Shown here piece by piece: positions 10,989 through 40,084 of a DNA stretch of 64,000 nucleotides. The stretch is taken from positions 293,645 through 357,644 of the forward strand of contig AP024679.1 of assembly GCA_025999215.1 (NCBI GenBank), given 5' to 3'. This DNA is from Candidatus Dojkabacteria bacterium. GTDB lineage: Bacteria > Patescibacteriota > Dojkabacteria > J137. The position numbers were made by a program, and so were the translations under genes. The notes under the pieces are model-generated. The model worked only from the letters and a program-made list of their open reading frames with translations, had not been told where the DNA came from and ran no database searches. Position 1 is the first letter of the stretch. Every line of letters begins with the position of its first letter.

Positions 10989-11013
10989 TTTAAAATATCA
11001 AATCATTACGAAA

Positions 11014-11048
11014 AGAAAAGGAGGGTTTCCCTCCTTTTCTTTTTTATC
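11014..11048 (+). terminator. Rho-independent terminator after groEL
   Basis: AAAAGGAGGG-UUU-CCCUCCUUUU hairpin followed by a T-tract. Confidence 0.7.
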
Positions 11049-11083
11049 TTTATATTTATATTAAAATTCTTTATACTGGTTAT

Positions 11084-11401
11084 ATGCTAGACATATTCTT
11101 AAAACCTTTTTATTGGTGGTATGCGGTTATTGTGAGAAGTTACTTTATTTATCTTTTTTTAAACTATAGTTTTTACTTAAATAAAACCGACACCATACCA
11201 ATGTTCAAAAATATTTTCGTGCCTTTGTTTGGAAGAAAGGGGATAACTAACAGAATTATTAGCCTATTTTTACGTTTTTGGTGGGTCGTGTTTGGTTTTA
11301 CATTTTCTACAGTTTTGATAATTCCAATGTTTTTGTTTGGAATTTTGTTGTTGATACTGCCATTTTTACCTATTATTCAAACTTATAGAATTGTAACATG
11401 A
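11084..11401 (+). CDS. Small polytopic membrane protein (hypothetical)
   Basis: Hydrophobic 105-aa ORF whose end overlaps the start of the next gene (ATGA). Confidence 0.35.
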   Translation: MLDIFLKPFYWWYAVIVRSYFIYLFLNYSFYLNKTDTIPMFKNIFVPLFGRKGITNRIISLFLRFWWVVFGFTFSTVLIIPMFLFGILLLILPFLPIIQTYRIVT

Positions 11402-13975
11402 ATGAAATGCTTGAAATTACAACGTCAAACAATACAAAAATTATTTTAAACCTTGAAGATTTATTTAAATTTAGAGGTGAGCGAAAAAATCGTGATTATT
11501 TTGATAAAAGGTTAGGTTCTTTGTTGTTTATATTGGGAATTATTTTGTTAGTAATTCCATACTTTTGGCTAATTTATAATAGTCGTTTTTCTTTTAAAGA
11601 ATTATGGAATCCTACTGAACCAGGCCTAATAATTTCAAATATTTCAATTTTTTTGATAATTTATGGATTGTATTTAAAAAGAGATAAAAAAGTTTTTGAT
11701 TCGAGTTTGCACCTTGAAGACCTTTCAGACTTACGAAAAAAAATTAAAAATAATGCTCAAAAAGTCTACGAATTAGAAAATGCCTTTAGTGTAGAGGTTT
11801 TACAAATTTTGGATGAAGTTTATGCCAAACACAAAGACTTTTTTTTAGTAGCGTTGTCTGATTACATGGTAAGTGTCTCAAAAGAAAAAAAACTTTTAGA
11901 GAGTAGGTTGGGCTTAGATTTAAAAAGTTTAAAAAATGCTTTATTAGAACACTTTAAAACTAAAACTACTAGTTTTGAAGTGATGGCCGCAGAATTTTTT
12001 AGAGATTTATTAGATAAAGCTAATTTTATTGAAAGTGATTACATAGATGAAAAAATTCTTTTGGCAACTCTAATAGAAAAATATTGGAAGGAAGTTTTAA
12101 GAGAATTCGAAATAACAGAATTAGATATTAAAGGTTTTATTTTGTGGCTTAAAAATGAGCAGAAAAATTTAAATTATCAAAAAAAATGGAAGCGATTGTC
12201 AAAATTAAAACCCAAAGGCCCAATTAATAGAGCTTACACCTCTCGTGCAACCCCAATGCTTGATGAGTTTGGGTACAACTTAACTGCTCGAATTATTGAT
12301 AGAGGCTTTAGTATTTCTATAGGCAGAGAAAATGAAATTAATACTCTTTTACAGACTTTGGAGCAAGAATCAAGCGCTGCAGCGATAATTATTGGTGAGC
12401 CAGGTGTAGGAAAAACTCACTTTTTAGAGTATCTAGCAACAAGAATGATAATTGAAGATGTTCCGAAAGAGCTTAGAGATTCAAGGCTTGTGGTTGTAGA
12501 TTTAAATAAGGTATTTGCTAAAGCGGGATCAATTGATCACTTTAAGCAGATTTTACAACAAATTTTAGAGGAGGTTGTGGAATCTAAAAGTTTAATTATT
12601 GCTTTTGAAGATTTTTCACAAATTCTCTCAATCCGAACTGAAGGAAGAATGGAAATTATTAATTTGGTTATGAATATGATTACTAGATATAATATTAAAA
12701 CCATAACCACCACAACTCTTTCAGATTATTACAAGTATGTTAAACCTATAAAAACATTGGCTGCTCTTTTTACGCCAATAAACCTAAACGAGCCAAGTAA
12801 AGAAGTTACTCTACAGATTTTATTAGATGAAGTTAAGCAACTTGAGAAAAAACATAATTTAACAATTCAAGTATCAGCCGTTAAGAGAATCGTGGAGTTT
12901 GGCAACGAATTTGATTTTGAAAGAGTAATGCCTGATAAGGGTAACAGGCTACTTGAGGAGGCAGTGATAAGGGCAGAACAAAATAATTTTAAAGTGATTG
13001 ATGAAGATTTAATTGATGAGCTTTTGTCTGAAAAAATCGGAGTTAATGTTGGAGAGATACGACAAGATGAAGCGATTAAGCTTAGAAACCTTGAAGAAGA
13101 AATGCACAAAAGAGTTGTTGGACAAGAAAATGCGATATCAGCAGTTGCTAGTGCGCTTAGAAGAGCTAGAGCAGGGATTATTAGTTCAAATCGTCCCAGT
13201 TGCTTCATTTTTATTCTTTGGTCCCACAGGAGTTGGAAAAACTGAAGTTGCTAAAACACTAGCAAGTACTTACTTTGGAGATGAAAAAAATATGATTAGG
13301 TTAGACATGTCTGAATATCAAGAGGAAAAAAATCTGGATAGGCTAATTGGGTATGCTGATGATTCAGGAGAATTTATTGGTGGATATCTTGTTGATTCTG
13401 TTAGGCAAAAACCTTTTTCGTTAGTCTTGTTGGATGAGATTGAAAAAGCAAATTCAAAAGTTTTAGATTTATTTTTGCAAGTTTTAGATGAAGGTTTTAT
13501 AACTGATGGGTTAGGTAGAAAAATTGATTTTACAAACACGATTATTATTGCTACCAGCAATGTTGCTTCAAAGGAAATAACTGTAATGTTTGAGCAAGGG
13601 CAGAAATATATTGATGTTTTAAATAAAATAACTCCACTTTTGAAAAATTATTTTAGGGTTGAGTTTATTAATCGTTTTGATAAAGTCATTATGTTTAGAC
13701 CGTTGAATTTTGTAGATATTGAGCAAATAGCGAATTTAATTCTGATGAAACTGAGAGATAGGTTACTTGCTCAAGGAATAGATTTAAAATGGGATAAAAA
13801 TACTCTTTTTAAATTAGCTGAAAAAGGTTATAGTAGAGTGTACGGTGCGCGAGAGCTAAGAAGAGTTATACAAGAAACTATTGAAGATGATATTGCAACT
13901 GCTATAATTGAGAAAAAGTTGAAAAGCGGTAATACAGCTGTTTTAAGCGGTTTAGATATTATTTACATTACTTAA
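11398..13975 (+). pseudogene. Divergent, membrane-anchored Clp/Hsp100-like double-AAA+ ATPase (ClpA-like, no M-domain, Clp N-domain replaced by 2 TM helices) with one frameshift between D1 and D2
   Basis: D1 Walker A GEPGVGKTH with degenerate Walker B (IIAFEDF). Linker ...MHKRVVGQENAISAVASALRRARAGIISSNRP. D2 continues in the overlapping frame (track ORF 13013-13975): SFLFFGPTGVGKTEVAK...LVLLDEIEKA...sensor-2 GARELRR. Frame switch near 13195-13205 at a CCC run. N-terminus has two predicted TM helices (residues ~40-95). Confidence 0.7.
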
Positions 13976-14335
13976 ATGAAAAAAATTATTTTTATAACAA
14001 TTTTTTACACAAGCGTTTTTTTAGATAGGGTTAATGCGCAAGAATTTTCTTACAGTATTCCTAGCCCTACAAGGTATCAAAGTTTGGAGGATGTAGTTTC
14101 TGCATTAGGAAATTTAATTCAGCCAATATTTATATTAACCTTTTTGGCAATGGTTTTGTATGGGGCATGGGTTAGGCTTACATCGCAAGGAAATGCTGAC
14201 AAATTAGCAACAAGTAGAAAAATAATCATTGCTGCAATAGTGGGTTTTACCTTGGCGGTTTTAGCTCCATCAATAGTAAATATTGTAACAGGTTTACTTG
14301 GAGTAACTGGTTTAGAAACTTTACAAACAAATTAA
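13976..14335 (+). CDS. Secreted small two-TM protein, VirB2/TrbC-like pilin family (paralog 1)
   Basis: Signal peptide ending VNA-QE, then a TM - charged loop - TM hairpin (ILTFLAMVLYGAWVRLTSQGNADKLATSRKIIIAAIVGFTLAVLAP). Topology and size match conjugative-pilin-type proteins. Homology is not proven. Confidence 0.45.
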   Translation: MKKIIFITIFYTSVFLDRVNAQEFSYSIPSPTRYQSLEDVVSALGNLIQPIFILTFLAMVLYGAWVRLTSQGNADKLATSRKIIIAAIVGFTLAVLAPSIVNIVTGLLGVTGLETLQTN

Positions 14336-14338
14336 AAT

Positions 14339-14950
14339 ATGAAGGCTTTATTGTTTGTTTTAAATATATTTTTTTTAATCTCAATAATTTTTGGATCTGT
14401 AGTTTATGCACAAGGTTATCCAGGACCTAATACTAATGATCCAAACTATAGTCGTATAGGGTCCGCTCCTGAAAATTGTAGTGACAACTACGTGGTAGAT
14501 TTTAGTTGTCAAAGAGCAAAAATTTTAGATCCTTCAGTTTTTTGTTATGAAAACAAATGCCCAGATGTTCCTTCTTATCAAGATGCTCAGCAAGGTAGCG
14601 ATGATACTTGGTTAAGTTTAGATGCTTTTGGGGCTAGATTAAATATTGATTCTGGAAAAGAGATTGCCGCACTAATTAATATTTCCATATCTACTTTTTT
14701 GGGAATTATATCTATTTATGCATTGGTTAGAGGTGTGTATGTTGCTGGCTTTAAAATAGCAGGTAATACAGAACAAGAAAAGCTTACAGAAGCAAGGAAT
14801 GAAATTGTGCAACTAGTTTTGGCGTTTGTAATTGCTTGGTCGGCAATTTTTGTATTGCAGTTTGTATTCTCTTTGCTTGGATTAGGTAGTATTAATAACT
14901 ATATTTTATTTGGAGATAACCAACAAGGAACTCAAATAGTTATAAATTAA
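14339..14950 (+). CDS. VirB2/TrbC-like pilin-family paralog 2 with Cys-rich ectodomain
   Basis: Signal peptide (VYA-QG), an ectodomain of about 100 aa with 6 Cys, then the TM-loop-TM module with the shared 'EQEK' loop signature (KIAGNTEQEKLTEARNEI). Confidence 0.45.
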   Translation: MKALLFVLNIFFLISIIFGSVVYAQGYPGPNTNDPNYSRIGSAPENCSDNYVVDFSCQRAKILDPSVFCYENKCPDVPSYQDAQQGSDDTWLSLDAFGARLNIDSGKEIAALINISISTFLGIISIYALVRGVYVAGFKIAGNTEQEKLTEARNEIVQLVLAFVIAWSAIFVLQFVFSLLGLGSINNYILFGDNQQGTQIVIN

Positions 14951-14953
14951 ATT

Positions 14954-15499
14954 ATGAAAACAAAAACTAAAATCTTATTGTTTTTAATTATGTTTTTTGT
15001 AATACCGCCATTAGTGAGCGCGCAGGATGGATCAGGCTCTTTGGAATTCAATACAGGTAAGGCTGGTGAAGGCTTAGACCCAATTACGATTTCTTTTTTC
15101 CCTCAAGTTACTCTTATTGATGCAGAGTATGCAAGCTTTTTAAGTTGGTTAAGTTTTATAGCTAACATAGCTATATTAGTTTTGGTGCTTTTTTGGCTTT
15201 ATAAAATTTTTTTTGCAGGGATAGAAGCTATGAGAGGTGGTGGTGAAGCTGAAAAATTGGTTGAATCTTGGAAAAAAGTTAGAGCGGTTTTGCTTGGAGT
15301 AACTATTTCTTTTTTGATACCAATAATACTTTCTATTGTAGGGACTTTTTTGGGTGTTGGTGCAATTTGGGAGTGGCCATTAGCTTTTAGAGAATGTAAA
15401 GATGATAGGTATGATTATTATTTTCAAGCTTTACAGGAGTGGAGTCAAACTACAAACGTTTCAGATCCTAAAGCTGAAGTTGATAGTATTTGTTTTTAA
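14954..15499 (+). CDS. VirB2/TrbC-like pilin-family paralog 3
   Basis: Signal peptide (VSA-QD) plus TM - IEAMRGGGEAEKLVESWKK - TM. Confidence 0.45.
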   Translation: MKTKTKILLFLIMFFVIPPLVSAQDGSGSLEFNTGKAGEGLDPITISFFPQVTLIDAEYASFLSWLSFIANIAILVLVLFWLYKIFFAGIEAMRGGGEAEKLVESWKKVRAVLLGVTISFLIPIILSIVGTFLGVGAIWEWPLAFRECKDDRYDYYFQALQEWSQTTNVSDPKAEVDSICF

Positions 15500-15507
15500 T
15501 AATTTAA

Positions 15508-15945
15508 ATGTATAGATTTTTTATTTTTGCAGCAATTATTTTATTGAGTTTTGGTTTTTTAAACATAGTTAAGGCTCAGGGCTTTTGTGATTTTTATCCA
15601 TGTGGTAATAATGATCCAAGTATTGATGACAGCACAGAAGATGATCTTTCAGTAACTTTTCGAACAGGTTTTCGATTAATAACATCGTTAATATTTACAG
15701 TTTTCATAGCATATGGTATATTTTTGATAATTAAGGCTACTTATATTATTATTAGAAGTGAAGGAGTTTCAGAAAAATACGAAAAAGGGTATAAGTTGAT
15801 AAAGGGGGTTTATGTTGGTGTAATTATGATATTTATAGGTTTGATAGGTTTATTGATTGTTGCTGTTTTTTTTGGTGGGGTAAGTATATTTAATGTTGAG
15901 CTAACTGAGCCAGAAGGGGTTGATACACCGTTATTTGAATTTTAG
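15508..15945 (+). CDS. VirB2/TrbC-like pilin-family paralog 4
   Basis: Signal peptide (VKA-QG), short Cys-containing ectodomain, then TM - IRSEGVSEKYEKGYK - TM. Confidence 0.45.
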   Translation: MYRFFIFAAIILLSFGFLNIVKAQGFCDFYPCGNNDPSIDDSTEDDLSVTFRTGFRLITSLIFTVFIAYGIFLIIKATYIIIRSEGVSEKYEKGYKLIKGVYVGVIMIFIGLIGLLIVAVFFGGVSIFNVELTEPEGVDTPLFEF

Positions 15946-15971
15946 ACTTTTATTATTTATTAGTTGTCAAA

Positions 15972-16512
15972 TTGAAAAAAATATCTAATTTTACATTAGG
16001 GGTATTTGTTTTTTTGATTATTGCGTTTTTTTTAGTAACTGTTAATGTTGATGCACAGGGTAGTTCCCAAGATCTTCCTGATGATACGAATGCTACAACT
16101 ACTAATGATGAAAGTTTGGTTTGTCAAGTACTTCCATTTTTAAAGAATATAGCATTTGTTAATAAGGCTATATATGAGGGTAGTGAATAAGGTGCAGAAA
16201 ATGCCGTTAACACCATAGTAGGCTTGGTTCAACTAGGAGGAACTTTGGTGTTTGTAGGTATAATAGGAATATCAATTTATGTGATCATAAAGGCGGCAAT
16301 AAAGTATATAAGAAGCGAAGGAGAAGGAGAAGGTGGTTGAAGCGCAAAAGGCAATAAAGCAGGTGTTTGCAGGTTTAGCGGCGTTATTTGTAGGGTTGGT
16401 AGGTTTAGTAATAATACTTGCATTAATAAATACTGATGGTACTTTGGGTGGTTCTACTGAGCAGAATAGTGATTTAATAAAACAGCTAGAACAATTAAAT
16501 TTAGGGGAGTAG
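15972..16512 (+). pseudogene. VirB2/TrbC-like pilin-family paralog 5, inactivated. This is the first, diverged unit of the 647-bp tandem repeat.
   Basis: In-frame TAA at 16188-16190 where the intact copies have AAA. A 2-nt deletion near 16320 (GAAGGAGAA-GGAGAAGG versus GAAGGAGAACAGGAGAAGG) shifts the frame into TGA. From 16191 onward the nucleotide sequence is near-identical to 16838-17159. Confidence 0.7.
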
Positions 16513-16572
16513 TTTGTTAATTTAGAATTTAGATATTTAAAAATAAATTTTTTATCGGATTTACAAAGAATT

Positions 16573-16602
16573 TTGACATTTTTTGAGCTGTTTGTGTATA
16601 AT
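16573..16602 (+). promoter_or_regulatory. Consensus sigma-70-type promoter inside the repeat unit
   Basis: TTGACA - 18 nt - TATAAT, about 35 nt upstream of the 16638 ATG. An identical copy sits at 17220-17249 upstream of 17285. Confidence 0.55.
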
Positions 16603-16637
16603 TAATTGAACAAATTTATTAATTAGTTTAATTTAAA

Positions 16638-17159
16638 ATGAAAAAAATTATTAACAAGATTCACTCAACACTCATTATTTTAATGTTTGTTTTTTTATTA
16701 CATCCACTTCTTTTTTCAGTCTTAGTTGTTCGGGCTAGCGGTCAAAGTGATTTTTCTAATATTATATGTCAAGTACTTCCTTTTTTGAACAATATAGTAT
16801 TCGTTAAGGATGCTATATGTAAGGGTAATGAAAAAGGTGCAGAAAATGCCGTTAATACCATAGTAGGCTTGGTTCAACTAGGAGGAACTTTGGTGTTTGT
16901 AGGTATAATAGGAATATCAATTTATGTGATCATAAAGGCGGCAATAAAGTATATAAGAAGCGAAGGAGAACAGGAGAAGGTGGTTGAAGCGCAAAAGGCA
17001 ATAAAGCAGGTGTTTGCAGGTTTGGCGGCGTTATTTGTAGGGTTGGTAGGTTTAGTAATAATACTTGCATTAATAAATACTGATGGTACTTTGGGTGGTT
17101 CTACTGAGCAGAATAGTGATTTAATAAAACAGCTAGAACAATTAAATTTAGGGGAGTAG
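16638..17159 (+). CDS. VirB2/TrbC-like pilin-family paralog 6 (repeat copy A)
   Basis: Signal peptide (VRA-SG), Cys-containing ectodomain, then TM - IRSEGEQEKVVEAQKAIKQ - TM. 173 aa. Confidence 0.5.
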   Translation: MKKIINKIHSTLIILMFVFLLHPLLFSVLVVRASGQSDFSNIICQVLPFLNNIVFVKDAICKGNEKGAENAVNTIVGLVQLGGTLVFVGIIGISIYVIIKAAIKYIRSEGEQEKVVEAQKAIKQVFAGLAALFVGLVGLVIILALINTDGTLGGSTEQNSDLIKQLEQLNLGE

Positions 17160-17284
17160 TTTGTTAATTTAGAATTTAGATATTTAAAAATAAATTTTTT
17201 ATCGGATTTACAAAGAATTTTGACATTTTTTGAGCTGTTTGTGTATAATTAATTGAACAAATTTATTAATTAGTTTAATTTAAA

Positions 17285-17806
17285 ATGAAAAAAATTATTA
17301 ACAAGATTCACTCAACACTCATTATTTTAATGTTTGTTTTTTTATTACATCCACTTCTTTTTTCAGTCTTAGTTGTTCGGGCTAGCGGTCAAAGTGATTT
17401 TTCTAATATTATATGTCAAGTACTTCCTTTTTTGAACAATATAGTATTCGTTAAGGATGCTATATGTAAGGGTAATGAAAAAGGTGCAGAAAATGCCGTT
17501 AATACCATAGTAGGCTTGGTTCAACTAGGAGGAACTTTGGTGTTTGTAGGTATAATAGGAATATCAATTTATGTGATCATAAAGGCGGCAATAAAGTATA
17601 TAAGAAGCGAAGGAGAACAGGAGAAGGTGGTTGAAGCGCAAAAGGCAATAAAGCAGGTGTTTGCAGGTTTAGCGGCGTTATTTGTAGGGTTGGTAGGTTT
17701 AGTAATAATACTTGCATTAATAAATACTGATGGTACTTTGGGTGGTTCTACTGAACAGAATGATCAATTACAAAGATTAAGGGATTTAGATTTGGGAGAA
17801 CAATAA
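17285..17806 (+). CDS. VirB2/TrbC-like pilin-family paralog 7 (repeat copy B; identical to copy A except the C-terminal 15 aa)
   Basis: Nucleotide-identical to 16638-17115. C-terminus is NDQLQRLRDLDLGEQ versus NSDLIKQLEQLNLGE in copy A. Confidence 0.5.
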   Translation: MKKIINKIHSTLIILMFVFLLHPLLFSVLVVRASGQSDFSNIICQVLPFLNNIVFVKDAICKGNEKGAENAVNTIVGLVQLGGTLVFVGIIGISIYVIIKAAIKYIRSEGEQEKVVEAQKAIKQVFAGLAALFVGLVGLVIILALINTDGTLGGSTEQNDQLQRLRDLDLGEQ

Positions 17807-18010
17807 AGTTAGTTTTAGTAGGGAAGATAATTTTAAAATAGCTAAATTAATTTATTTCTTTTTTATTAGCCTAATTGGGTGTTGGGGATTTTTTGTTTAA
17901 ATTAGATGTAATTTTATTATTTAATTCTAGATTCAATCAGTGTTCTATCGTCTGAAACAATTACTTCAAATTTACTTGATAAAAGTTTCATTTCTTGGGA
18001 TACTTTTGGT

Positions 18011-18470
18011 ATGAAAAATTTACTTGTAGTGTTGCTTGTTTTTTTTGGGCTTGCTTTCTTTACACTCAGTGTAAATGCTCAAATGCAAGACATTCCCTTT
18101 TCTGCAAATGATTCATCGTGCAGTAGTTATCAGTGCTTCAATGGTGAGGATCCTGTTTATAATGAAAGTAAAAAGTTATGTATGTGTGGAGATGAGCCTG
18201 CATACTTCAAGCCACCCACACTTCAGCAAGTTGAGATATGGTTTGTTAGGATAGTTTATATCGTTTGGGCTTTTGTTGGGTCACTTTCTTTTGTAATGCT
18301 AGTTTATTTGGGATATCAATATATGCTCAAAGGAGGGAACAAGTGACCAAGCCTTGGTTGATTTAAGAAGGAGGATTATAAACTATATAATTGGGGTGGT
18401 ATTAGTGTTTTTGGCTGTTCCCGATATTAACGACTTTCTTTCGGTTTTTAAATATAAATGGAGATGTTAA
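18011..18470 (+). pseudogene. VirB2/TrbC-like pilin-family paralog 8 requiring a +1 frameshift (probably pseudogene)
   Basis: Signal peptide (VNA-QM), Cys-rich ectodomain and TM1, then ...LKGGNK-TGA at 18344. The +1 frame continues DQALVDLRRRIINYIIGVVLVFLAVPDI..., which recreates the charged loop plus TM2 seen in all paralogs. Confidence 0.55.
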
Positions 18471-18977
18471 GTGTTATGAGTTTGCAGAGTCTGGGGAATT
18501 GACATTTAGATTTTTCTTTCCAGAGCTTATGTACTGATCCTTTGAATGTTTTAGTTTCGGATCCTTGTACGTTTGGTGATGATGCTAGAGGGTTTGCTTG
18601 TGCTATAGAAGGAGCAAAGGTATCTGATTGCTCTGCAAGAAATTACAGAAGTATACAATATTTAGAGCTTATGTTTGTAGACAAGGTGTATCGAATTCTA
18701 TCGAGTTTAATGATAGTAACTAGTTTAACATCGATTTGAAACTAATAAGTTTGTTGTAGATGCACATACTGATTTTGTTATTTAATGTAAGTGTGAGATT
18801 AATATATTAGATTTTAAAGTTGTAAGATTATAAGAGATAGTATGTCTGAACGAATTTATAACTACAAACGATTTCAATTCTATTCCTGATTCGTTACAAG
18901 TAGATATTGCGGGAGAAGAAAATTCTTTTGATGTAATTACCAAAATAGAGTCTTCTGGTATAACAGTAACTAAAAAT

Positions 18978-19970
18978 GTGAAGAAATATATTTTGAAAAA
19001 GATAATTGATCGTCAAAATCAGTTACTAGATGAAAGAAAACCCTTAGATGGCGAATTTAATAAACTTAAAGATGAAAAGCAAGCTCTTGAAGGAAAGGAA
19101 CTTTTTGTATTATATTTACAAACTTTAAAAAATGATTTAGAAGATGTATTAAAAAAATATGAGATTAATGAAATTGACAAAACAAAAATTGAAAATTTAA
19201 AGCGTGAAAAACAGCATATGAGAACCAAATATCTTTTAGGTAAAGAAGATAATTTTTTTGCACAAGATAAAAATGAAGATAATGATGAAAAAAAGGATGA
19301 GCCATATTATTTTGTGGTTGGTTTAATGGTTTTGCAATCACTATTTGTTGTGTTTGCTTTATTGTATAAATTTAATTTGACGTTACTTTTAATTGGCGTG
19401 GTTTCATTTTTGATACAAATTTTATTTGCGTCACTTGCAAATAAAGTTGGATATTATGAAAATAATCTGTTATTTGAGTTGATTAATTATACTCATCCTG
19501 AAATAGATAAGCAGGAAGTGTTTGATAATTTTGATTATGAGGAGAGTATGCTTGTGAAGTTTGCAATGTATGAAACGATTAAGAATGAAATTAATAAGAT
19601 AGATGAATATAGTCAAGAATTTTTGAATGGGCAGACCTTAGATGAGTTTTCAAACAAAATAAAGCAAATAGTTGATAAAATGAGAGAAATTAATGAAAAG
19701 CTTATCGAAATTGAAAAAATTTCAATTAGTTCTGAAAAATTGAAAAAACTTAAACAAGAGCAATCTAGTTTGTCTGGCACAGGTTTGTTTGGGGATGTAT
19801 CATCTTCTGAAGGTGTTTTGAGTGATGCCGATAAAATCTCAATAGGAAGATTTTTGGTTGTTAATCATCAAAATGCTCTATCGGTTGAATTTGCCAGAGA
19901 GCAATTTAATATTTTACAAGAAGTCATTAGTGATAAAATACTTTATAGGACACAAGTTACACAAAACTAA
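18978..19970 (+). CDS. Hypothetical coiled-coil membrane protein (two central TM helices)
   Basis: K/E-rich helical N-region, TM pair (YYFVVGLMVLQSLFVVFALLY / LLLIGVVSFLIQILFASL), acidic C-region. Confidence 0.45.
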   Translation: MKKYILKKIIDRQNQLLDERKPLDGEFNKLKDEKQALEGKELFVLYLQTLKNDLEDVLKKYEINEIDKTKIENLKREKQHMRTKYLLGKEDNFFAQDKNEDNDEKKDEPYYFVVGLMVLQSLFVVFALLYKFNLTLLLIGVVSFLIQILFASLANKVGYYENNLLFELINYTHPEIDKQEVFDNFDYEESMLVKFAMYETIKNEINKIDEYSQEFLNGQTLDEFSNKIKQIVDKMREINEKLIEIEKISISSEKLKKLKQEQSSLSGTGLFGDVSSSEGVLSDADKISIGRFLVVNHQNALSVEFAREQFNILQEVISDKILYRTQVTQN

Positions 19971-20010
19971 TTTAGTCAAGATAGCTAACATAGCTAATCT
20001 AGTTATATTT

Positions 20011-21711
20011 ATGTTTGTGTTTGTTAATCCAGCATGGGCACGAAGTGTTGCTGATATCCAAAATGAAATAAATCAACAAGAACAAGAGTTAGAAAATGTA
20101 AAAGAAACATTGGAAAATGCGTTAAAGCAGCTCCAAGATACTGAGAGTAAATTGAATAATCAACAATCAGAATTAGAAAAATTAAATTCTGAAATAAGTT
20201 TAATTGATCAGCAAATAAACATTAATAATGTAGAGTTAGAGATTTTAAAAAAAGAAATAGAGGTTAAGCAACTTGAAAAAATCAAAAGAGAAAAAATTTT
20301 AGAAAAAACTCTATCTAAAAATTACATGGATTGGAGAGCTAAGGATACTCAAATAGAAAAATTTTTATTAAAAAATAACATTGATAATTCAGAGAAACAT
20401 TGGCAATATGATTCATTTTTTGTGAGTATTCAACAACAAGGTATAGTATCCCTTTTGGAGACATTGCAAGATCTCAAAAAATTATCTTCTGAGTATGATA
20501 AAAAAATAGAAGAGTTACAAGCTCAAAACAGTGAACTTGAAGCAAAAAAACAAAAATTACAAGAAGAGCTTTTGGCATTACAAAATGCGATTTATGCTAC
20601 AAACAACAACATAGTATCTTTACAAAGCCAGCAACAAAATATCGAAAGTAAAATTAAAAATCTTCTTGAGGAACAAAAACAAGCTTTTGAGTACGAACGA
20701 AAAATCTTAGAACAAGATCCTGGTGGAGGTGGTGGAAATATTAACGAGGGTGAGTGGTTTTTTTATGGAAGTGGAAGAGATTTGTATCAAGGACATGGTG
20801 TAGGTATGAGTCAATGGGGTGCTCACGGTATGGCATTAAATGGTTTTACATATGATCAAATACTTAGTTTTTATTATGAAAATTCATATGTGCAGGGCGG
20901 TTTTTCAAAGCAAATTAATGTTGATGGATATGGAAGCATGGATATTGAAACTTATGTATCAGGCTTAGGTGAAGTTCCTAGCAAAGCTTGTGGGAATCCT
21001 GATCAAGTTCAATCTAATCCGGAAAAATATGTGATAGATGATCCAAACAATAGTTGGGATTGCTGGCCTGAAGAAGCCATTAAAGCTCAGGTAGTAGCTG
21101 CTAGAACCTATGCATGGTGGTATACCAGTGTGAGAGGTAGCATTTGCACTACAGCATCATGTCAGGTTTACAGTGGAGGTAATGGAAAAGCCTGGGCAGC
21201 ACAAGAAACTCAAGGAGAGCTAGTTCTTTATAATGGTTCTCCTATTGAAGCCGTATATTCTTCAGATAACAATCAAGGTTATGGTACGGCAGACAACGAT
21301 ACTATTTGGCAAAACATTTATGGAGACGGCACACCTTATCCATATTTAAGATCAAAAAATGATAATGATTATGCAACACCTACTCAATGGACTAATTGGA
21401 CTTATCAAACCTCTGGTTTTTTGAGTCAAGATATTAACGCTATGCTTAATTTTGTAGTCAATAATTCTAATTATTCTATAGGCGTTAAAAATGCTATTAG
21501 TAATATAATTAACGAAGTTGGAGAAATTGAAAGTTTAAGTTTTGTTAGAGATAATTCTTTAAGAGTTAAAAAAGTTATCTTGAAAGGAACCAATGGTGTA
21601 GAAAAAAGTATTGGTGGATGGTGGTTTAAAAATATTTGGAATACTTGGGCTTATGAGACTGGTAGAGGAGATTATATATATTCTCAGACGTTCTTTTTAT
21701 CAAGTAAATAA
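20011..21711 (+). CDS. SpoIID/LytB-domain (peptidoglycan-remodelling) protein with long N-terminal coiled coil
   Basis: GHGVGMSQWGAHGMALNG matches the SpoIID/LytB core. It is preceded by about 200 aa of Q/E/L-rich heptads and a Gly5 linker. Track ORF starts at 19858, overlapping the upstream gene by 113 nt. The ATG at 20011 (MFVFVNPAWA) is more plausible, but the true start is uncertain. Confidence 0.6.
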   Translation: MFVFVNPAWARSVADIQNEINQQEQELENVKETLENALKQLQDTESKLNNQQSELEKLNSEISLIDQQININNVELEILKKEIEVKQLEKIKREKILEKTLSKNYMDWRAKDTQIEKFLLKNNIDNSEKHWQYDSFFVSIQQQGIVSLLETLQDLKKLSSEYDKKIEELQAQNSELEAKKQKLQEELLALQNAIYATNNNIVSLQSQQQNIESKIKNLLEEQKQAFEYERKILEQDPGGGGGNINEGEWFFYGSGRDLYQGHGVGMSQWGAHGMALNGFTYDQILSFYYENSYVQGGFSKQINVDGYGSMDIETYVSGLGEVPSKACGNPDQVQSNPEKYVIDDPNNSWDCWPEEAIKAQVVAARTYAWWYTSVRGSICTTASCQVYSGGNGKAWAAQETQGELVLYNGSPIEAVYSSDNNQGYGTADNDTIWQNIYGDGTPYPYLRSKNDNDYATPTQWTNWTYQTSGFLSQDINAMLNFVVNNSNYSIGVKNAISNIINEVGEIESLSFVRDNSLRVKKVILKGTNGVEKSIGGWWFKNIWNTWAYETGRGDYIYSQTFFLSSK

Positions 21712-21749: not shown

Positions 21750-22547
21750 ATGAATAATAATTACAATAGTTCACCTAATTATTCTAATCCCAATCCTAAT
21801 ATGGTTCCTAATAGTGAGGGTATAGTTCCAGCTCCCATGCCGGTGCCAAATTATGGTTTTGAACCAAATCAACCGGCAGTCCCTATGGATCACTATGAAT
21901 ATCAAAAAAGATTGAGGGATATTAATTTACAAAGAGAAATTAGCGAAATAGAAAGAATTATACCAAGAAAGAAAAACTCCTCTTTTTCAAGTCTTGAGTT
22001 TAGACCCAAGCATGTTCATTTTGCAACTCAAAATCCCCAGGAAAAGGTTTATCTTTTAATAAGAAGGCATTGGATTACAAATTTAGGTTGGTTTTTGAGA
22101 TATACATTTTTGGCTTTTGTACCTCCTACTATATTTTTTATACTTAAATTTTTCGAGATAGAAACTGATCTGGTGACTCCGAGAGGGATTTTTTTATTTT
22201 TATTAGGTTTTTATTCTTTGATTATTACTAATTTTTTCTCACATTTTTTTGATTGGTATTTTGATCCATATATTTTAACTAACGAAAGAATAATAGGATA
22301 TGATTTTAAGCCTTTTACTTCTTTTTCTGTAACTGAAGCAACACTTGATAACATTGAGGATGTTCAAGAAAAATCTATTGGCCCCATAGCGAGTCTATTT
22401 CATTATGGAAATATCAGACTTTTGACTGCGTCTGAAAAAGGTGAGATTGTTTTTGAAGCTGTACCAAACCCTACGGAAGTTAGAGATATCATAGCTGATG
22501 TGACTAAGATATACAAAAAGTATAATTTAAATCAACACAATGATTGA
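21750..22547 (+). CDS. Membrane protein with bacterial PH (bPH_2/YdbS-like) domain and N/P-rich N-terminus
   Basis: N/P-rich low-complexity N-terminus, TM hairpin, then the bPH2-like pattern ...IRRHWITNLGWF...ILTNERIIGYDF. Confidence 0.4.
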   Translation: MNNNYNSSPNYSNPNPNMVPNSEGIVPAPMPVPNYGFEPNQPAVPMDHYEYQKRLRDINLQREISEIERIIPRKKNSSFSSLEFRPKHVHFATQNPQEKVYLLIRRHWITNLGWFLRYTFLAFVPPTIFFILKFFEIETDLVTPRGIFLFLLGFYSLIITNFFSHFFDWYFDPYILTNERIIGYDFKPFTSFSVTEATLDNIEDVQEKSIGPIASLFHYGNIRLLTASEKGEIVFEAVPNPTEVRDIIADVTKIYKKYNLNQHND

Positions 22548-22814: not shown

Positions 22815-25181
22815 ATGGATATTAAGGCTGAGTTTATTGTAGGTAAACAAACGCCCAGACAGTGGTCTGGGGTTTATGGTTATGTTCCAGAAGAAAAAAG
22901 TGTTTTAGAAACCCGAGGAAGTTTGTGTGTGGTGATATCTCTTAAATCTGAAAATGATTCGGTTGTACTAGAGCATGTAGCTTCTTTTTCTCTAGATGAA
23001 TTACAAAGATATATCTATGAAGAAGATTTTAATAATTCCTATCTTGAGCATCTTGAAGAAGCTATGTTTGCTATGAAAAATAGGCTTTTAACTGTTGTTG
23101 ATAAAGAAGAGAGTTTAAAAGATGGTGTTGACTTTGAGATGGCCGTGGGAATTTATTTTAACGATTATGCTTATTTTGCGAGTGTTGGTGAGGCAGGCAT
23201 TTATTTGTTGAGAAATGAAAATTTGGTTTGTGTTTCTGATGCTTTGATTGATTCAAGTATGCAAGGCTTTTTTAGAACAGGAAGCTTGATGATTGAACCG
23301 CTAGATACGTTTTTGTTATGCACTTCAAAATTTGTAAATGAAGGTGAAGAAGTTGTTAGAAAAGTGTTAAAAGATAAAGATTTAGAAAAACCAACAAGTG
23401 ATTTTATACACAAACCAGGTATTGCGGGCATGCTTGTTGCTGATATTGAGGTAATGAAAAATTTTGCTTCAGAATCTGAGGATGAATCAAAAGAAAGAGT
23501 AGACGTGATTGATGCAAAAGAGATTGAGTTAGAAAAAGCAGAAGAGCACAGTAAAGATCAATTGTTAAAAACTTTTGAGAATACAGATAGTGATGAAATC
23601 AAAGATGAATCAGATGTAAATGAAAAAATTAATCAAACTATAGAAAATGATGACTTGGATGATGGGGTTGAAAATAAAAAAGTTTCAGATTTAAATCAAT
23701 TGACAACATTTCAAGAATATTTTGAGAATTTAAGAAATAAATTAAAGGGTCTGTTTGGTAAAATTTTGCCAGGTTTAAAAAATTTAAACTCGATTTTTAA
23801 AAGTAAAGTTGTTAAGCATTTTAAAGATAATAAAAAAACTTACGCTCAATTTTTGAAAAGCATATATACAAATTTAATTACATTTGGCTCAAAAGTGGCG
23901 GATTTGTTTAAAAGAGAGGTTTTGGGAGTCGGTTATCAAGATAGAAGAAATGCTTTTGATAGAGCAAAAAGAATAAGGAGAAATAGAAGAATATTTGCGG
24001 GTGCTTTGGTAATACTAATTATTTTTACATACTTTTTCATATCAAGAACAATTCAAAATAACAAAATTCAAGCGGAAAGACGCGAAATTGAAGCCAGGTA
24101 TCAAGTTTTACAATCTGAGGTTGAGTCATTGAAATCAGAGGCTTTGGCAACCAAAAATCAAGATGTTGATAAAAAAGTATTGGTTTTGAACGAAATAGAT
24201 AAATTAACTAAAGAAGTTGAAGATGCAACACCAGAAGATTATATGAGTGATGCTTTTAGTAGCTTAAATGAAGCTTTGAGTGAAGTGCGTGATGATTTAC
24301 TTTTGATTGATAGAATCAGAGAGCCTCAAGTGATAGCAGATTTTGGCGCAGTATTTGAGGATGTTGATTTAAGAGACATTGCTTACTCTAATGGTGGCAT
24401 TTTTGTAAGTGATTATTTAAGAAATGTTGTTTATAAACTTTCAACTAATTTGTCGTCTGAACCAGTAGAGCATATTTCAAATTTGGTTAAACCTGAGTTT
24501 TTAGTTACAAGTAGCAGTGGAGATTTAATTGTTTATGATAATGATGAAATAAGTGGTATAGCTAGGTTCTCTCCAAATGAAAGTAATTCTTTAAGTAGGT
24601 TTAGTGGCTTGTTAGCAAGGAGAGATATTGGAAGTGTTGCCGAGGTTGGCTTGTATCTCAACACAGATGGACTTTATGAGTTAAAAACATCCAATGAACA
24701 AATTTATAAAAGAGAAAAGTCAGGTGATACCTATCTTGGTGGCGGAGCATTGTTTGTTAGTTCAAATCCTCCAAATTGGAAAAATGATCCAGAATTATCA
24801 AGAGCAATAGATATAGCTGTTCCGTTTGAGATTTATGTTTTGATTGATGGAGGTGGGATTAGAAGATATCTTGGAGGAGGTGATAACACACTTGTGTATG
24901 AGAGTTTTGTGAATTTATTGAGATCTGATTTTGAGAGTTTTAAAAATGCAAGTAGCATTGATGTGAGTAGCCAATTTATGGCAGTGTCGGATCCACAAAA
25001 TAGAAGAGTTATGATTTTTCAAATTTCTGATACTCCTGAAAAATTTTTAACCTTGGTTACACAATTTGTTTATGATGGAACAGAGGATTATTTTAATAAT
25101 TTGCAAGAGGTTGTAATCAATGAAATAGACAGGCAAGTTTATGTGCTTGATGGTGAAAAGGTAATAAGGTTAGATTTTTAA
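22815..25181 (+). CDS. Large hypothetical membrane protein: N-terminal globular domain, acidic linker, one TM (~residue 395), coiled coil, beta-rich C-domain
   Basis: 788-aa [26 protein letters not shown]. No catalytic motif recognised. Confidence 0.45.
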
Positions 25182-25183: not shown

Positions 25184-25637
25184 ATGAAAGTACTTTCAAC
25201 TAACAAACAAGCAAAACGAAATTATGAGTTTATAGAAAAGTTTGAAGCAGGAATAGTTTTAGAAGGCTGGGAGGTAAAATCAATCAAAGCAGGGTAGTGT
25301 ATCTATAGATGGTTCTTATGCTTATGTCAAAGAAAATGAAGTATTTGTTAAGAAGGTGAAAGTATATCCGTTAATGTCCGCGGGTAAAGTTCCTGAGGCT
25401 CAAACGGAACGCGATAGGAAGTTGCTACTTAAGAAAAATGAAATCAACAAAATTAAAACTTTACTGAAAAATATAGGTTATACTTTAGTTGTCAGTCAGT
25501 TGTTCCTTGCTAATTCGGGTTTTATCAAGGTTGAAGTGGTGGTTTCTAAAGGGCTCAAAAAATATGAAAAAAGAGAACGGAAAAAGGAGAAAGATTTAAA
25601 AAGAAAATTAGAAGCTGATAGAAAATATTATGGATAA
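25184..25637 (+). pseudogene. smpB: SsrA-binding protein SmpB, split by a 1-nt frameshift
   Basis: 25184-25297 encodes [40 protein letters not shown]. The +1 frame continues [66 protein letters not shown]... (track ORF 25356-25637). Both halves align to SmpB. The break is at a GGG run near 25292-25295. Confidence 0.75.
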
Positions 25638-26218: not shown

Positions 26219-28669
26219 TTGTATATGTTAGTTAAGATGGATATAATCAACACTGCTATTATAATTTTATATTTTATAATAGGAATACTTCTTGGAAGTA
26301 TTGTAGCTTACTTTTTGTTAAAATACGCGCTTAAGAAAACACATGAAGCAGTTTTGAGAAGAAAACATAGAAATTTGGTTTTCTTTGAAGTTAAATTACC
26401 TGCAAACAACGAGTTTGAGATAAAAGTGGCAGAGCAAATGTTTGCTGGTTTGATGAGTATTTCACCAAAAATTAAAGGAATAAAAAAATATTTTAATGCT
26501 AAGGCTTTCGTAAGTTTTGAGGTGGTAGCATTTAAAGATAATATTAAGTTTTATGTAGCTTGTCCAAAAAGAATAGCGGGAATAGTCGATAAGCAAATTA
26601 ATGGAACTTATACATCTGCTGATATTAAGCTGGTTAAAGAATATAATTTATTTCCTGACGATTCAAAAGTGGCTTACGCGGCTTTGAAACTAGATAAGCA
26701 TCATAGAATACCCATCAGAACTTATGAGGATTTGCCTGTAGATACATTGTCAACTTTGCTAGATGCGTTTAGTAAAATTCAGTTTAATGAAGCAGCGGCA
26801 TTTCAAGTTGTAATTACTCCAGCTGGTTCTGAATGGCGTAATCAATCTAAAAAATATATTAAAAAGCTTAGAGAGGTACCAGAAGGAGAAGATGGAAAAA
26901 CTAAGAAAAAACCTGAGCTTGATGATGATACTATTCAACTTATTGACCAAAAAGCATCGAAACCGGGTTTTTATGTAGATGTTAGGTTGGTTGCAGTTAG
27001 TGAAGATAAAGAGTCAGCCGAAATGCATTTGAGTAATATGATGAGTTCAATAGATCACTATGTAAAAGAAGGTGGAAACAGATTTAAGAAATTAGAAAAG
27101 AAAAAAATTAAAAATATAGTTGATGATTTCATCTATAGAATACCTAGAGAAACTATGATATTAAACACGGAAGAACTAGCTACTCTTTATCACTTCCCAA
27201 ACAAAAATATAACTACTCCTCATGTAAATTGGCTTTTATCTAAAAAAGCGCCAGCTCCGGATTTTGTAGAGGCTGAATTTAAAGAAGATTATATGTATAT
27301 TGGGAGAAATACTTTTAGGGGAAAAGAACGGGAGATTTTTATCAAACCAGAGGATAGGCTTAGGCATATGTACATAATCGGTCAAACTGGTACCGGAAAA
27401 TCAGGTTTTATGGTAGGTATGATGACAAGAGATATTAAGCTTGGACATGGTTGTGGTTTTATTGACCCTCATGGAAGTGATGCAGAAAAAATACTTCAAC
27501 AGGTTCCTCCTGATCGTGCTGATGATGTAGTATTTTTTGATCCATCAGATATGGAAAGGCCATTCGGTTTGAACATGCTTGAATATGAATCAGAAGGGCA
27601 GAAAGCAAAAGCTTTAGATGAATTATTGTCTATTTTTGATACTTTGTTTGATTTGAGGCAAACAGGAGGACCAATATTTTATCAATATTTTCGTTATGGA
27701 GTATTACTTTTATTATCAGATCCAGACTCAGGTGCGACAGTGTTAGAAGTTCCAAAGATCTTATCTGATGATGCTTATAGAAAGTACAAGCTATCTAGGT
27801 GTCCAGATAAAGAGATTGTTGCATTTTGGGAAAAACAAGCTGAAGCAGCGGGAGGAGAAGCCTCTCTAAAAAACTTGGTTCCTTATATTACTTCCAAATT
27901 ATCTCCATTTGTTACCAACCCTTATGTGCGACCAATTGTTGCACAACAAAAATCAACACTAGATTTTAAAGATATTATGGATAGTAAAAAAATTTTGATA
28001 GCCAAATTATCAAAAGGAAAGATTGGAGATTACAATGCTTATCTTTTAGGAATGATTTTAATTGGAAAATTGCTTGTTACTGCGTTGAGTAGAGAAGAAA
28101 AATCGGAAAGTGAGAGAGTTCCTTTTTACTTGTACATTGATGAGTTTCAAAATTTTTTGACGGAATCTATTCAAACAATTTTGTCGGAAGCTAGAAAGTA
28201 TAAATTGTCTCTCACTATTGCACACCAGTACATTAGTCAGTTGGTTAAAAATAACGATACTAGAATTAGAGATTCAATTTTTGGTAATGTTGGTAATAAG
28301 GCTGTTTTTAGAGTTGGTACCGAAGATGCAAAATTTTTGGAACATGAGTTTGAAGGTGTGTTTGATAAAAATGATTTAATTAAGGTTGAAAATTTCACTT
28401 TTTATTTGAAGATGTTATCTGGTGGACAACCCACACCACCTTTTTCAGTAAGATCTTTTTATGGTGACTCAAAATACGATATGATAGGTAAACCTAATCC
28501 TGAGTTAGCTCAGATAATCAAAGAAATATCGAGGCTAAAATACGGAAAGCCTAGAGAGCTGGTAGAGAAAGAAATAGAAATGAGGACAGAAGAGGCTCAT
28601 AAAAAGGGTGAAGAAATAATTAAGAAAAACAAATCTTCTTCAGGCTTCGGCGGTTTCGGTGGATTTTGA
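26219..28669 (+). CDS. VirD4/TrwB/TraD-like type IV coupling-protein-family ATPase with N-terminal TM anchor and 370-aa N-extension
   Basis: Walker A YIIGQTGTGKSGF. FIDPHGSD (compare TrwB IVDPNGD). Walker B LYIDEFQNF. Motif LTIAHQYISQL (compare T4CP/FtsK-HerA QSxSQL). One TM at residues 8-30. C-terminus is GFGGFGGF. Confidence 0.55.
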   Translation: MYMLVKMDIINTAIIILYFIIGILLGSIVAYFLLKYALKKTHEAVLRRKHRNLVFFEVKLPANNEFEIKVAEQMFAGLMSISPKIKGIKKYFNAKAFVSFEVVAFKDNIKFYVACPKRIAGIVDKQINGTYTSADIKLVKEYNLFPDDSKVAYAALKLDKHHRIPIRTYEDLPVDTLSTLLDAFSKIQFNEAAAFQVVITPAGSEWRNQSKKYIKKLREVPEGEDGKTKKKPELDDDTIQLIDQKASKPGFYVDVRLVAVSEDKESAEMHLSNMMSSIDHYVKEGGNRFKKLEKKKIKNIVDDFIYRIPRETMILNTEELATLYHFPNKNITTPHVNWLLSKKAPAPDFVEAEFKEDYMYIGRNTFRGKEREIFIKPEDRLRHMYIIGQTGTGKSGFMVGMMTRDIKLGHGCGFIDPHGSDAEKILQQVPPDRADDVVFFDPSDMERPFGLNMLEYESEGQKAKALDELLSIFDTLFDLRQTGGPIFYQYFRYGVLLLLSDPDSGATVLEVPKILSDDAYRKYKLSRCPDKEIVAFWEKQAEAAGGEASLKNLVPYITSKLSPFVTNPYVRPIVAQQKSTLDFKDIMDSKKILIAKLSKGKIGDYNAYLLGMILIGKLLVTALSREEKSESERVPFYLYIDEFQNFLTESIQTILSEARKYKLSLTIAHQYISQLVKNNDTRIRDSIFGNVGNKAVFRVGTEDAKFLEHEFEGVFDKNDLIKVENFTFYLKMLSGGQPTPPFSVRSFYGDSKYDMIGKPNPELAQIIKEISRLKYGKPRELVEKEIEMRTEEAHKKGEEIIKKNKSSSGFGGFGGF

Positions 28670-28716: not shown

Positions 28717-28793
28717 GCTCCTGTAGCTCAGTTGGTTAGAGCACGGTTCTTATAAAGCCGGGGTCAGTGGTTCGAGTCCACTCAGGAGTACCA
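28717..28793 (+). tRNA. tRNA-Ile (anticodon UAU), CCA encoded
   Basis: Cloverleaf: acceptor GCUCCUG/CAGGAGU; anticodon stem CGGUU/AGCCG with loop CUUAUAA (UAU); T-arm AGUGG-UUCGAGU-CCACU; 3' ACCA. Confidence 0.75.
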
Positions 28794-28796: not shown

Positions 28797-29663
28797 CTAC
28801 ACTTCATAAATCTTATCTTTTCCTGAAGGTTTGTATTTCTTAGAAAGGAGTGATAAATATTTTTGAGTTGTGCTTTCTGATTTATGACCTACAATTTGAG
28901 CGAGGTAACTAGTAGAAACGCCTTGAGATAGTTGATGAACAATAAAGGTATTTCTGATATCGTTTACGCAGACGTTTTTCAAATTAGCTTTAGCTATAGC
29001 TCTATCAATTGAATTTCTAATATTTCTAATTTGAATAGGTTGACCAGTTCTGGTAAAAAATAAAGGATGGTTATTATCTTTATCGGCACAATGTTTTTCA
29101 AGATATGATTTTAATACGTAAAATAGCTTATCGTTGATCGGTATAACCCTCTTTTCATTTGATCCGTAAGGTTCTATAGTTATTTCTTTTTTAGACATAT
29201 CCACATCTTTAATTTTGAGGTTTGCAAGTTCAGCTATCCTGATTCCTGTTTGAAGCAATGTTTCAATTATTACAAATAATCTTTCATTTTGCCTACTAAC
29301 TTCTTTGAGTGCTAGATATTCTGTTGGTTTTAAAATTCTTTTTTTCTTGTTAATGTATTTAGGATGTTCCACTTCTAATGCAGGATTGTATTTTATTTTT
29401 TTTGTTGTTATTAAAAAATTAAAAAATGTTCTATAACTATTAAGTTTACGAGAAATTGTTTTAGGGGAAAGTCCTTTCTGTTCTTTTAAAAAAATCAAAG
29501 CATTTTTTATATCTTTGGTTTCAAATTGTGGTAAATCTTTTTGGACGTTTGTTTCTGCAAGTTGTTCGATATCTTTTTTATATGCAATAATGGTATTGGG
29601 AGACATTTTTTGTTTTTCTAAGTAGCTTGTGAAGCTTGCGACTAGTTCGTTAGTTGTATTCAT
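28797..29663 (-). CDS. Tyrosine recombinase (XerC/XerD/phage-integrase family)
   Basis: 288 aa with the C-terminal catalytic ...VGHKSESTTQKYLSL (H-x-x-R...Y) signature and the N-terminal core-binding motif (SPNTIIAYKKDIEQL). Its stop is 3 nt from the tRNA-Ile(UAU) 3' end. Confidence 0.75.
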   Translation of the reverse strand: MNTTNELVASFTSYLEKQKMSPNTIIAYKKDIEQLAETNVQKDLPQFETKDIKNALIFLKEQKGLSPKTISRKLNSYRTFFNFLITTKKIKYNPALEVEHPKYINKKKRILKPTEYLALKEVSRQNERLFVIIETLLQTGIRIAELANLKIKDVDMSKKEITIEPYGSNEKRVIPINDKLFYVLKSYLEKHCADKDNNHPLFFTRTGQPIQIRNIRNSIDRAIAKANLKNVCVNDIRNTFIVHQLSQGVSTSYLAQIVGHKSESTTQKYLSLLSKKYKPSGKDKIYEV

Positions 29664-39946: not shown

Positions 39947-40084
39947 TTTAGAATTAGAAAAAATGTCAGTAATCAGCCATCAGGCTGATGATTGATATTT
40001 TGTAACGATCTTTAACAACTGAATAGAACGACATCATGATAAAAAAGGTTTTTTTGTCATGTGGGTAATTAAAATTACCAGAAA

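Follow-up and report, generated by a model that had tools for sequence, protein, structure and literature searches.

Tandem arrays of genes for small, VirB2-like pilins are a published feature of the ultrasmall Patescibacteria. Candidatus Southlakia epibionticum carries six pilin genes (SEML1_0014–0019, encoding proteins of 103–185 aa), each of which was scored essential (Wang et al. 2023, Cell, PMC10633639); the gene descriptions in part of that study give PF18895 for SEML1_0014–0016, 0018, and 0019, and also PF04956 (TrbC/VirB2) for 0018 and 0019 (PMC10633639). A survey of type IV secretion systems (T4SSs) counted 441 VirB2-like arrays of 2–11 genes in 383 Patescibacteria assemblies (Quinonero-Coronel et al. 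2025, PMC12102498). Identity within those arrays averages 25% and reaches at most 54%, a role in host-range variation is speculated upon, and of 1948 assemblies only 1135 have pilin genes close to virB4 (PMC12102498). A 2025 review restates the array findings (PMC12857230).

We analyzed a 64-kb stretch of DNA from a Candidatus Dojkabacteria bacterium (contig AP024679.1, positions 293,645 to 357,644 of the forward strand; hereafter, the window, within which all coordinates are given). It is chromosomal, has a GC content of ~32%, and also encodes an rRNA operon, tmRNA, GroES/EL, FtsH, and PolA. A tandem array of eight paralogous genes in the window is a new, divergent example of the published Patescibacteria pilin arrays, and we regard it as likely to be the VirB2-like (PF18895) pilin set of a Patescibacteria-type T4SS, in a Dojkabacteria form. 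It is not novel as a kind; such arrays were already on record (PMC12102498).

A first-pass annotation made from the sequence had reported eight consecutive genes of one architecture, and this description stands. Eight plus-strand open reading frames (ORFs), named c1–c8 in gene order, succeed one another from the starts it gave, and they fall into six paralog types, T1–T6: c1–c4 are T1–T4, c5–c7 are three copies of T5, and c8 is T6. The first gene, c1 (13976–14335; 119 aa), encodes a canonical short PF18895 member; c2 (14339–14950; 203 aa) has an ectodomain of ~83 aa with four Cys; c3 (14954–15499; 181 aa) has a 45-aa C-terminal tail with two Cys and is 88% identical to its ortholog in the sister genome described below; and c4 (15508–15945; 145 aa) has orthologs P0004 and P0009. 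The T5 copies are c5 (copy a, 15972–16512), which is probably a true pseudogene, and the intact c6 (copy b, 16638–17159) and c7 (copy c, 17285–17806), each of 173 aa. The array had been taken to extend from 13976 to 18470; its start is correct, but c8 (18011–18723; ~234 aa once restored, as discussed below) runs on to ~18723, its intact ortholog having 234 aa with a Cys-rich C-terminal extension. From the ATPase gene upstream of the array to c5 the genes are separated by 0, 3, 3, 8, and 26 nt, and the following spacers are 125, 125, and 204 nt long.

By hydropathy heuristics, every copy has an N-terminal hydrophobic signal peptide, a variable region, and a two-helix hairpin with a charged loop (e.g., RSEGEQEK) between the helices, which is the topology expected of the family (a Sec signal peptide, then a pair of helices that a short polar or charged loop connects). 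AlphaFold2 helices of c1 and of the c8 ortholog P0003 agree with the hairpin. The signal peptides end in V-x-A↓Q (V-R-A↓S in c6 and c7), and the V and A of this cleavage site are the only invariant columns in the alignment of the eight copies. The variable region that follows spans ~17–83 aa and differs greatly between copies in length and sequence. Cys counts also differ: none in c1, four in c2, two each in c3, c4, c6, and c7, and ten in the restored c8. As originally stated, no class III (prepilin peptidase) motif is present: none of the eight copies has one within its first 40 residues. With no G↓F(T/S)LxE site, and with two C-terminal transmembrane helices rather than one N-terminal helix, these proteins do not fit the type IV pilins (T4P/ComGC-like).

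The VirB2/TrbC-like assignment made from the sequence was upheld by profile comparisons. Against Pfam PF18895 (T4SS_pilin), c1 scores 28.0 bits, above the gathering score of 26.6, and c2 a sub-threshold 17.1 bits; c3–c8 have no Pfam match in the window. Since several T6 orthologs carry precomputed PF18895, threshold membership extends to T1 and, through orthologs, to T6, and leaves T2–T5 outside. We then scored all copies with an external hidden Markov model (HMM), built from nine PF18895-positive proteins and zero window sequences, and obtained 135.8, 24.0, 35.3, 16.7, 31.8, 26.0, 26.0, and 27.2 bits for c1–c8. For no copy did any of 200 hydropathy-preserving block-shuffled decoys reach the real score, even for the weakest, c4 (16.7 bits; decoy maximum 9.2), and reversed sequences scored at most 1.6 bits. 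Because all copies pass both controls, the VirB2-like assignment of the array is well supported. Two homologs, P0041 and P0042, match both PF18895 and PF04956 (TrbC/VirB2). Among structures, the fold resembles solved VirB2-family pilus subunits, and it is pilus-forming subunits that it matches best. In functional terms a T4SS pilin is one that polymerises into an extracellular filament, with subunits that in some families are lipid-bound or cyclised; that the array proteins form a filament we infer.

To place the array in an evolutionary context, we compared 23 non-redundant related loci (L001, L002, L004, L005, and 19 from a genome-collection scan with a c8-type alignment), typing the ORFs across loci with type-specific profiles. 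L001 belongs to the sister metagenome-assembled genome (MAG) KatS3mg086, in which the flanking DNA is ~89% identical to the window; its array comprises eight intact pilin genes (119, 197, 181, 143, 165, 170, 176, and 234 aa), and that of the more distant genome L002 comprises six. In 18 of the 23 loci the array consists of exactly six genes, 1:1 orthologs in the order T1–T6. Extra copies are confined to T5 (in the window, L001, L012, and L027) and T1 (in L013 and L026).

Selection on these types is mostly purifying. Between the window and L001, the hairpins have a ratio of nonsynonymous to synonymous divergence (omega) of 0.01–0.23, and the ectodomains of T1–T4 (88, 66, 86, and 90% identical, respectively) have an omega of 0.10–0.12; the overall identity of T1–T4 is 75–92%. 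In c2 the ectodomain is 66% identical to that of its L001 ortholog and the hairpin 94%. Over all loci, mean pairwise identity is 41–62% for hairpins, 26–49% for N-terminal ectodomains, and 18–42% for C-terminal tails. Such a pattern is that of six ancient proteins under constraint, none redundant with another, rather than of a variation cassette. The ectodomains had been called hypervariable. A comparison of paralogs bears this out; among orthologs, T5 is the only type for which it clearly holds.

How, then, does the locus relate to systems already described? Arrays in the Patescibacteria survey are recognized as at least two VirB2-like chromosomal genes of low identity (~25%), in tandem or with one gene between them, and here there are eight adjacent genes, c2–c8 being 21–32% identical to c1. 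Like the Southlakia and survey arrays, this one is made of chromosomal tandem PF18895-type genes of low paralog identity for small proteins with a signal peptide and a hairpin, in a monoderm epibiont lineage. Southlakia has six genes and there are six basal types here, a correspondence in number. Unlike those arrays, ours lies outside a virB4 cluster, behind a Clp/Hsp100-like ATPase gene in a Dojkabacteria-wide module; its T6 has a Cys-rich C-terminal extension; and in the window its T3–T6 have no PF18895 match and its T2 only a sub-threshold one, so that surveys relying on Pfam thresholds would probably under-call this array and under-count others like it. Identity within the array, moreover, reaches 96%, compared with the 54% maximum of the survey.

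More remote relatives were also considered. Compared with solved conjugative VirB2/TrbC/TraA pilins (archaeal Ced/Ted, PDB 8dfu and 8dft; R388 TrwL, 8s6h), the array proteins have long variable ectodomains and tails and yield no significant sequence-profile match, and six types are encoded together where conjugative systems have one major subunit; mating-pair-formation genes and a relaxase do not adjoin the array. The trwL (virB2) copies of the Bartonella Trw system resemble T5 in being tandemly amplified through lineage-specific duplication and divergent in their exposed parts. All of them are versions of a single gene and supposedly diversify the surface of the pilus (PMC12857230); in the present array, amplification has affected a single type out of six that diverged anciently and keep their order. 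Finally, the Mbov_0395 family pilin-like conjugal transfer protein of Mycoplasma integrative and conjugative elements (NCBIfam NF045849), which likewise comes from a wall-less or monoderm lineage, shows weak hairpin similarity to c1, c2, c6, and c7. With scores of 15.8–22.6 bits (22.6 for c2), far below the 40-bit cut-off, this is a lead only, and the locus is not a member of that family.

The T5 copies account for most of the turnover in the array. Internal tandem repeats had been claimed for the locus; Tandem Repeats Finder reported nothing between 13500 and 19000, its period limit of 500 lying below the repeat that does exist, a gene-scale 647-bp unit present three times on the plus strand at 16122–17760, from the core of c5 through that of c7 (families D1 and D2, spacing 645–647 nt). 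Over 16513–17107, that is, 595 nt including the upstream spacer, c6 equals c7 apart from one synonymous nucleotide, and from 16972 on, through the tail and the downstream spacer, it equals c5. The c6 and c7 proteins are thus identical over 157 of 173 aa and differ in their C-terminal tails, which makes them near-identical recent duplicates, not the exact ones that had been described. A 125-nt spacer is identical at 16513–16637 and 17160–17284 and absent from all related loci. Each copy of it carries a perfect sigma-70-type promoter match (TTGACA-18-TATAAT, 12 of 12 positions), upstream of c6 at 16573–16602 and of c7 at 17220–17249, both on the plus strand; these are the only 12/12 matches within 11000–20000.

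This arrangement can be reconstructed with a single event. In an ancestral c5–spacer–c7 pair, the core of T5a would have crossed over unequally with that of T5c, yielding c6 as a chimera with the 5′ part of c7 and the 3′ part and tail of c5, together with a duplicated spacer; c5 would have decayed after the triplication. The triplication is very recent. It is probably real, since single HiFi reads (N50 10.5 kb) would span the triplicated block. Exact-sequence look-ups of c6, c7, and c1 in a contig index gave no match, so that neither the triplication nor the lesions of c5 gain support from an independent assembly.

T5 identity is 78–96% within the window and 68–94% within L001, yet only 48–57% between the two. 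Synonymous divergence (dS) between window and L001 is ~1.8 in T5 and 0.3–0.6 in the flanks, the T5 ectodomain is 40% identical, and the C-terminal tail, with an omega of 0.7–0.9, is the most variable segment across the class (18% identity). Because the L001 triplication has a shorter period and does not contain the 125-nt spacer, either T5 was amplified independently in the two genomes or the copies have been heavily remodelled since. Extra T5 copies of 45–63% identity also occur at L012:9193–9840 and L027:7027–8605, one of them with an Asn/Gly/Ser/Glu-rich low-complexity insertion in the ectodomain, and so T5 duplication and ectodomain remodelling recur across the class.

Two copies had been considered inactivated, a judgment that survives for c5 and probably fails for c8. 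Three lesions mark c5: an AAA codon has become the stop codon TAA at 16188, two nucleotides corresponding to c6 16970–71 are deleted, and a TGT-to-TAT substitution at 16173 abolishes a Cys invariant in the 29 other T5 sequences (29/29); its codon differences from c6 are four synonymous and eight nonsynonymous. As two of the three lesions are substitutions, c5 is probably a genuine pseudogene. The breaks in c8 are of another kind. Between 18335 and 18847 the window differs from L001 by 11 frame-breaking events, all insertions, of which seven lie in c8 (at 18335, 18420, 18530, 18616, 18628, 18635, and 18655) and four in the spacer and the opening codons of the conserved gene that follows. Once these insertions are taken out, c8 shares 91% identity with its ortholog overall; past the first frameshift the figure is 95%, and the differences there are 12 synonymous and seven nonsynonymous (omega 0.14). 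Its orthologs P0003 and P0006 are 234 and 230 aa long, and T6 proteins have two conserved Cys in the N-terminal ectodomain and six in the C-terminal extension, six of the eight being invariant and two nearly so among 22 homologs. The events are insertions only, extend beyond c8 to the spacer and the start of its neighbor, and are compatible with an omega of 0.14, unlike what a gene that had really gathered so many indels would show. The breaks are therefore most likely an artefact of the assembly consensus, and c8 is most likely intact in the organism.

Two further disruptions occur in the window: one extra C at 13196, within a C run, splits the ATPase gene upstream of the array, and SmpB (25356–25637) is truncated to 93 aa, compared with 150 aa in its orthologs. 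Together with the insertion cluster, these look like local consensus errors rather than biology. The probable source study (the Katase paper; connected to this genome by the MAG name KatS3mg085 only) used PacBio HiFi reads with a read N50 of 10.5 kb, assembled with metaFlye. The case shows that clustered consensus errors can mimic gene decay.

Could the array nevertheless serve variation? In the first-pass annotation it was a fast-evolving surface-variation cassette, and the corresponding explanation is that one pilus draws on the paralogs as alternative major subunits, which provide antigenic or host-range variation in an array that evolves fast. Precedents exist in the paralog arrays of Bartonella Trw and Anaplasma VirB2 (PMC12102498, PMC12857230), the idea has been put forward as speculation (PMC12102498), the ectodomains are wholly different between paralogs, and T5, with its recurrent duplication, fast divergence, near-neutral tails, and pseudogene, behaves accordingly. 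Opposed to this are the fixed order of six 1:1 orthologous types in 18 of 23 loci and the purifying selection on hairpins and on the T1–T4 ectodomains (omega ~0.1), which together indicate something other than a variation cassette; moreover, the six Southlakia pilins are individually essential and so not redundant, and no silent cassettes, invertible elements, or recombination repeats were found besides the T5 unit. Measured against pilE/pilS-like and Trw-like cassettes, T1–T4 and T6 do not conform, and T5 alone, the only type that both duplicates and diverges fast, fits. We consider a variation system unlikely.

The predicted topology puts the charged loop inside the cell and both the N-terminal ectodomain and the C-terminal tail outside it, and the array is transcribed directly behind the upstream ATPase gene. 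On the reading that we hold likely, that of a T4SS pilin set, the hairpins would pool in the membrane once the signal peptides were cleaved, and T4SS machinery encoded elsewhere (VirB4 and VirB6) would extract them into a surface filament or conduit for contact with the host bacterium. The six types would fill non-redundant structural positions rather than act as interchangeable antigenic variants, with T5 presumably the most dosage-sensitive and surface-variable subunit.

Several observations weigh against this interpretation. VirB4, VirB6, and VirB3 have no match in the window or within 10 kb on either side of the array in related loci, and the array is not part of a T4SS gene cluster in the sense of adjoining VirB4, VirB3, VirB6, and VirB8 genes. 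The only T4SS-type ATPase in the window is a coupling protein (T4CP)/VirD4-like one, 7.5 kb downstream of the array. Two conserved neighbors that have no Pfam match as single sequences and might have been hidden VirB6- or VirB8-like parts were ruled out as such: the 788-aa protein (22815–25181) is a single-pass protein with a C-terminal NHL/'Pizza'-type beta-propeller (ortholog scan; PDB profile E-value 4e-21), and the 265-aa protein (21750–22547) is a membrane protein with a bacterial PH domain (ortholog scan). A PDB sequence search with a profile of the eight paralogs recovered no pilin, only non-significant transmembrane noise (G protein-coupled receptors, seipin); Foldseek gave no match in the PDB at an E-value ≤0.001; the T6 model, a lower-confidence one of the c8 ortholog, gave generic hairpin matches only; and a two-helix hairpin is a low-information fold. 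The signal peptides and topology rest on heuristics, and according to reviews no T4SS pilus has yet been observed in any Patescibacterium (PMC12857230). As for VirB4, part of the survey's Table S1 lists it for two Dojkabacteria genomes (PMC12102498).

The gene directly upstream of the array (11398–13975, plus strand) encodes a membrane-anchored double-AAA+ Clp/Hsp100-like ATPase, which we label ClpTM. It has two N-terminal transmembrane segments and two Walker A motifs, has no Clp_N, and in each of its halves matches Pfam AAA/AAA_2/ClpB_D2-small. Between its stop codon and the start codon of c1 there is no gap; ClpTM stands directly upstream of the array in 22 loci, with spacers to the first pilin gene of 0, 0, −4, 26, and 31 nt across loci, and is intact (858–908 aa) at L001:3783–6359, L002:4803–7379, L004:4448–7174, and L005:4472–7057. 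The T4SS survey makes no mention of an ATPase of this type (PMC12102498). A canonical ClpB/C is encoded elsewhere in the window, at 56839–59382. We tried ClpTM as an obligatory motor of pilin assembly, an idea weakened by its likely Southlakia counterpart, SEML1_0700 (860 aa), which is non-essential and unlinked to the pilins; ClpTM is thus unlikely to be an assembly motor and may be an accessory factor.

These observations bear on a further explanation, namely that the proteins are VirB2-family by descent and do not build a filament, being channel or wall-spanning subunits or a membrane complex handled by ClpTM independently of VirB4. The missing VirB4 and VirB6 nearby and the tight ClpTM coupling in 22 loci are in keeping with it, as are reports that T4SSs of monoderms generally lack pili (PMC12102498, PMC10633639) and that some pilus-less T4SSs need VirB2 (PMC12857230). 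Yet pilus-forming subunits are the best structural match, the large, conserved, Cys-rich extracellular parts of T2 and T6 suggest exposure beyond the membrane, and in Southlakia the pilins are essential while SEML1_0700 is neither essential nor linked to them, all of which makes a non-filament role improbable in our judgment. That the genes instead encode unrelated small membrane proteins (holins or bacteriocin immunity proteins, classes named at the outset among the ways in which the pilin assignment could fail) that look like pilins through composition is largely refuted and very improbable: most copies do fall below the Pfam threshold and two-transmembrane proteins readily give weak spurious matches, but every copy outscores its 200 decoys and reversed sequences, no PHROGs or PADLOC match was found at an E-value ≤0.01, the conserved chromosomal module near GroEL and SmpB is no phage or bacteriocin locus, and cleavable signal peptides are not typical of holins.

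The array is part of a module with a near-universal gene order across the related loci: GroEL, ClpTM, T1–T6, (h381), SpoIID, h269, h70, h787, SmpB, h189, and T4CP-like. The SpoIID member, syntenic in most of these loci, is a cell-wall hydrolase with a SpoIID/LytB domain and a long coiled coil (19858–21711, plus strand; PF08486; TIGR02669, 120.8 bits), for which a role as a VirB1 analogue is possible. The T4CP/VirD4-like ATPase (26219–28669, plus strand) combines DUF8128, which is recorded on its orthologs, with TraG-D_C; it matches Pfam TraG-D_C, T4SS-DNA_transf, and TrwB_AAD_bind, and its NCBIfam VirD4/TraD-like matches are all far below the cut-offs. An Xer-like integrase gene (28797–29663, minus strand) lies beside a tRNA-Ile gene (28717–28793; ARAGORN) whose anticodon TAT (UAU) is uncommon in bacteria. 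A mobile-element context, which an integrase by a tRNA gene might signify, was rejected: the integrase, whose domain pattern is Xer-like, is syntenic in L002, and the module in its entirety is a conserved chromosomal one.

Elsewhere in the window, two tRNA-Met(CAT) genes lie at 30171 and 30363. The 23S rRNA match (40079–43092) spans 3014 nt, compared with the 2925 positions of the model, and may contain a small insertion. Just after the rRNA operon, two ORFs of 2575 aa (43468–51195; PEGA, CarboxypepD_reg, and a weak N-terminal response-regulator match) and 1355 aa (51258–55325; DUF2341 and fn3) possibly encode giant surface or adhesin proteins. Tracts of exact identity to L001 extend over 343 nt (23376–23718), 287 nt (21981–22267), and 134 nt (18176–18309), where the longest exact run expected at the uniform ~89% level is ~64 nt; this excess suggests either recent homologous exchange between two co-resident Dojkabacteria lineages or very uneven constraint.

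Few functions have been shown to be essential to a cultivated Patescibacterium in its life as an epibiont, and a T4SS with its pilin array belongs to them. Dojkabacteria are a second class with such an array, here as a fixed six-part set, and to the known kind the locus adds this six-type design, a T5 hot spot with a reconstructable crossover, and a Clp-like neighbor. That the set is fixed, ordered, and selectively constrained points to six distinct structural roles, not antigenic variation, and sharpens the questions to be asked of Southlakia. The T5 triplication in the window and the T5 duplications in three other lineages mark T5 as an evolutionarily labile and probably the most exposed subunit. 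A more specific proposal, which we hold possible but doubtful, is that the six types are obligate and non-interchangeable parts of one heteromeric VirB2-type structure, with T5, which is amplified and here has a perfect promoter match of its own, as its bulk, the Cys-rich T2 and T6 as specialised tip or adaptor subunits, and ClpTM dedicated to pilin handling. If true, this would be the first VirB2-family filament with the major- and minor-subunit logic of type IV pili, and its six-part design might be common to the essential Southlakia array.

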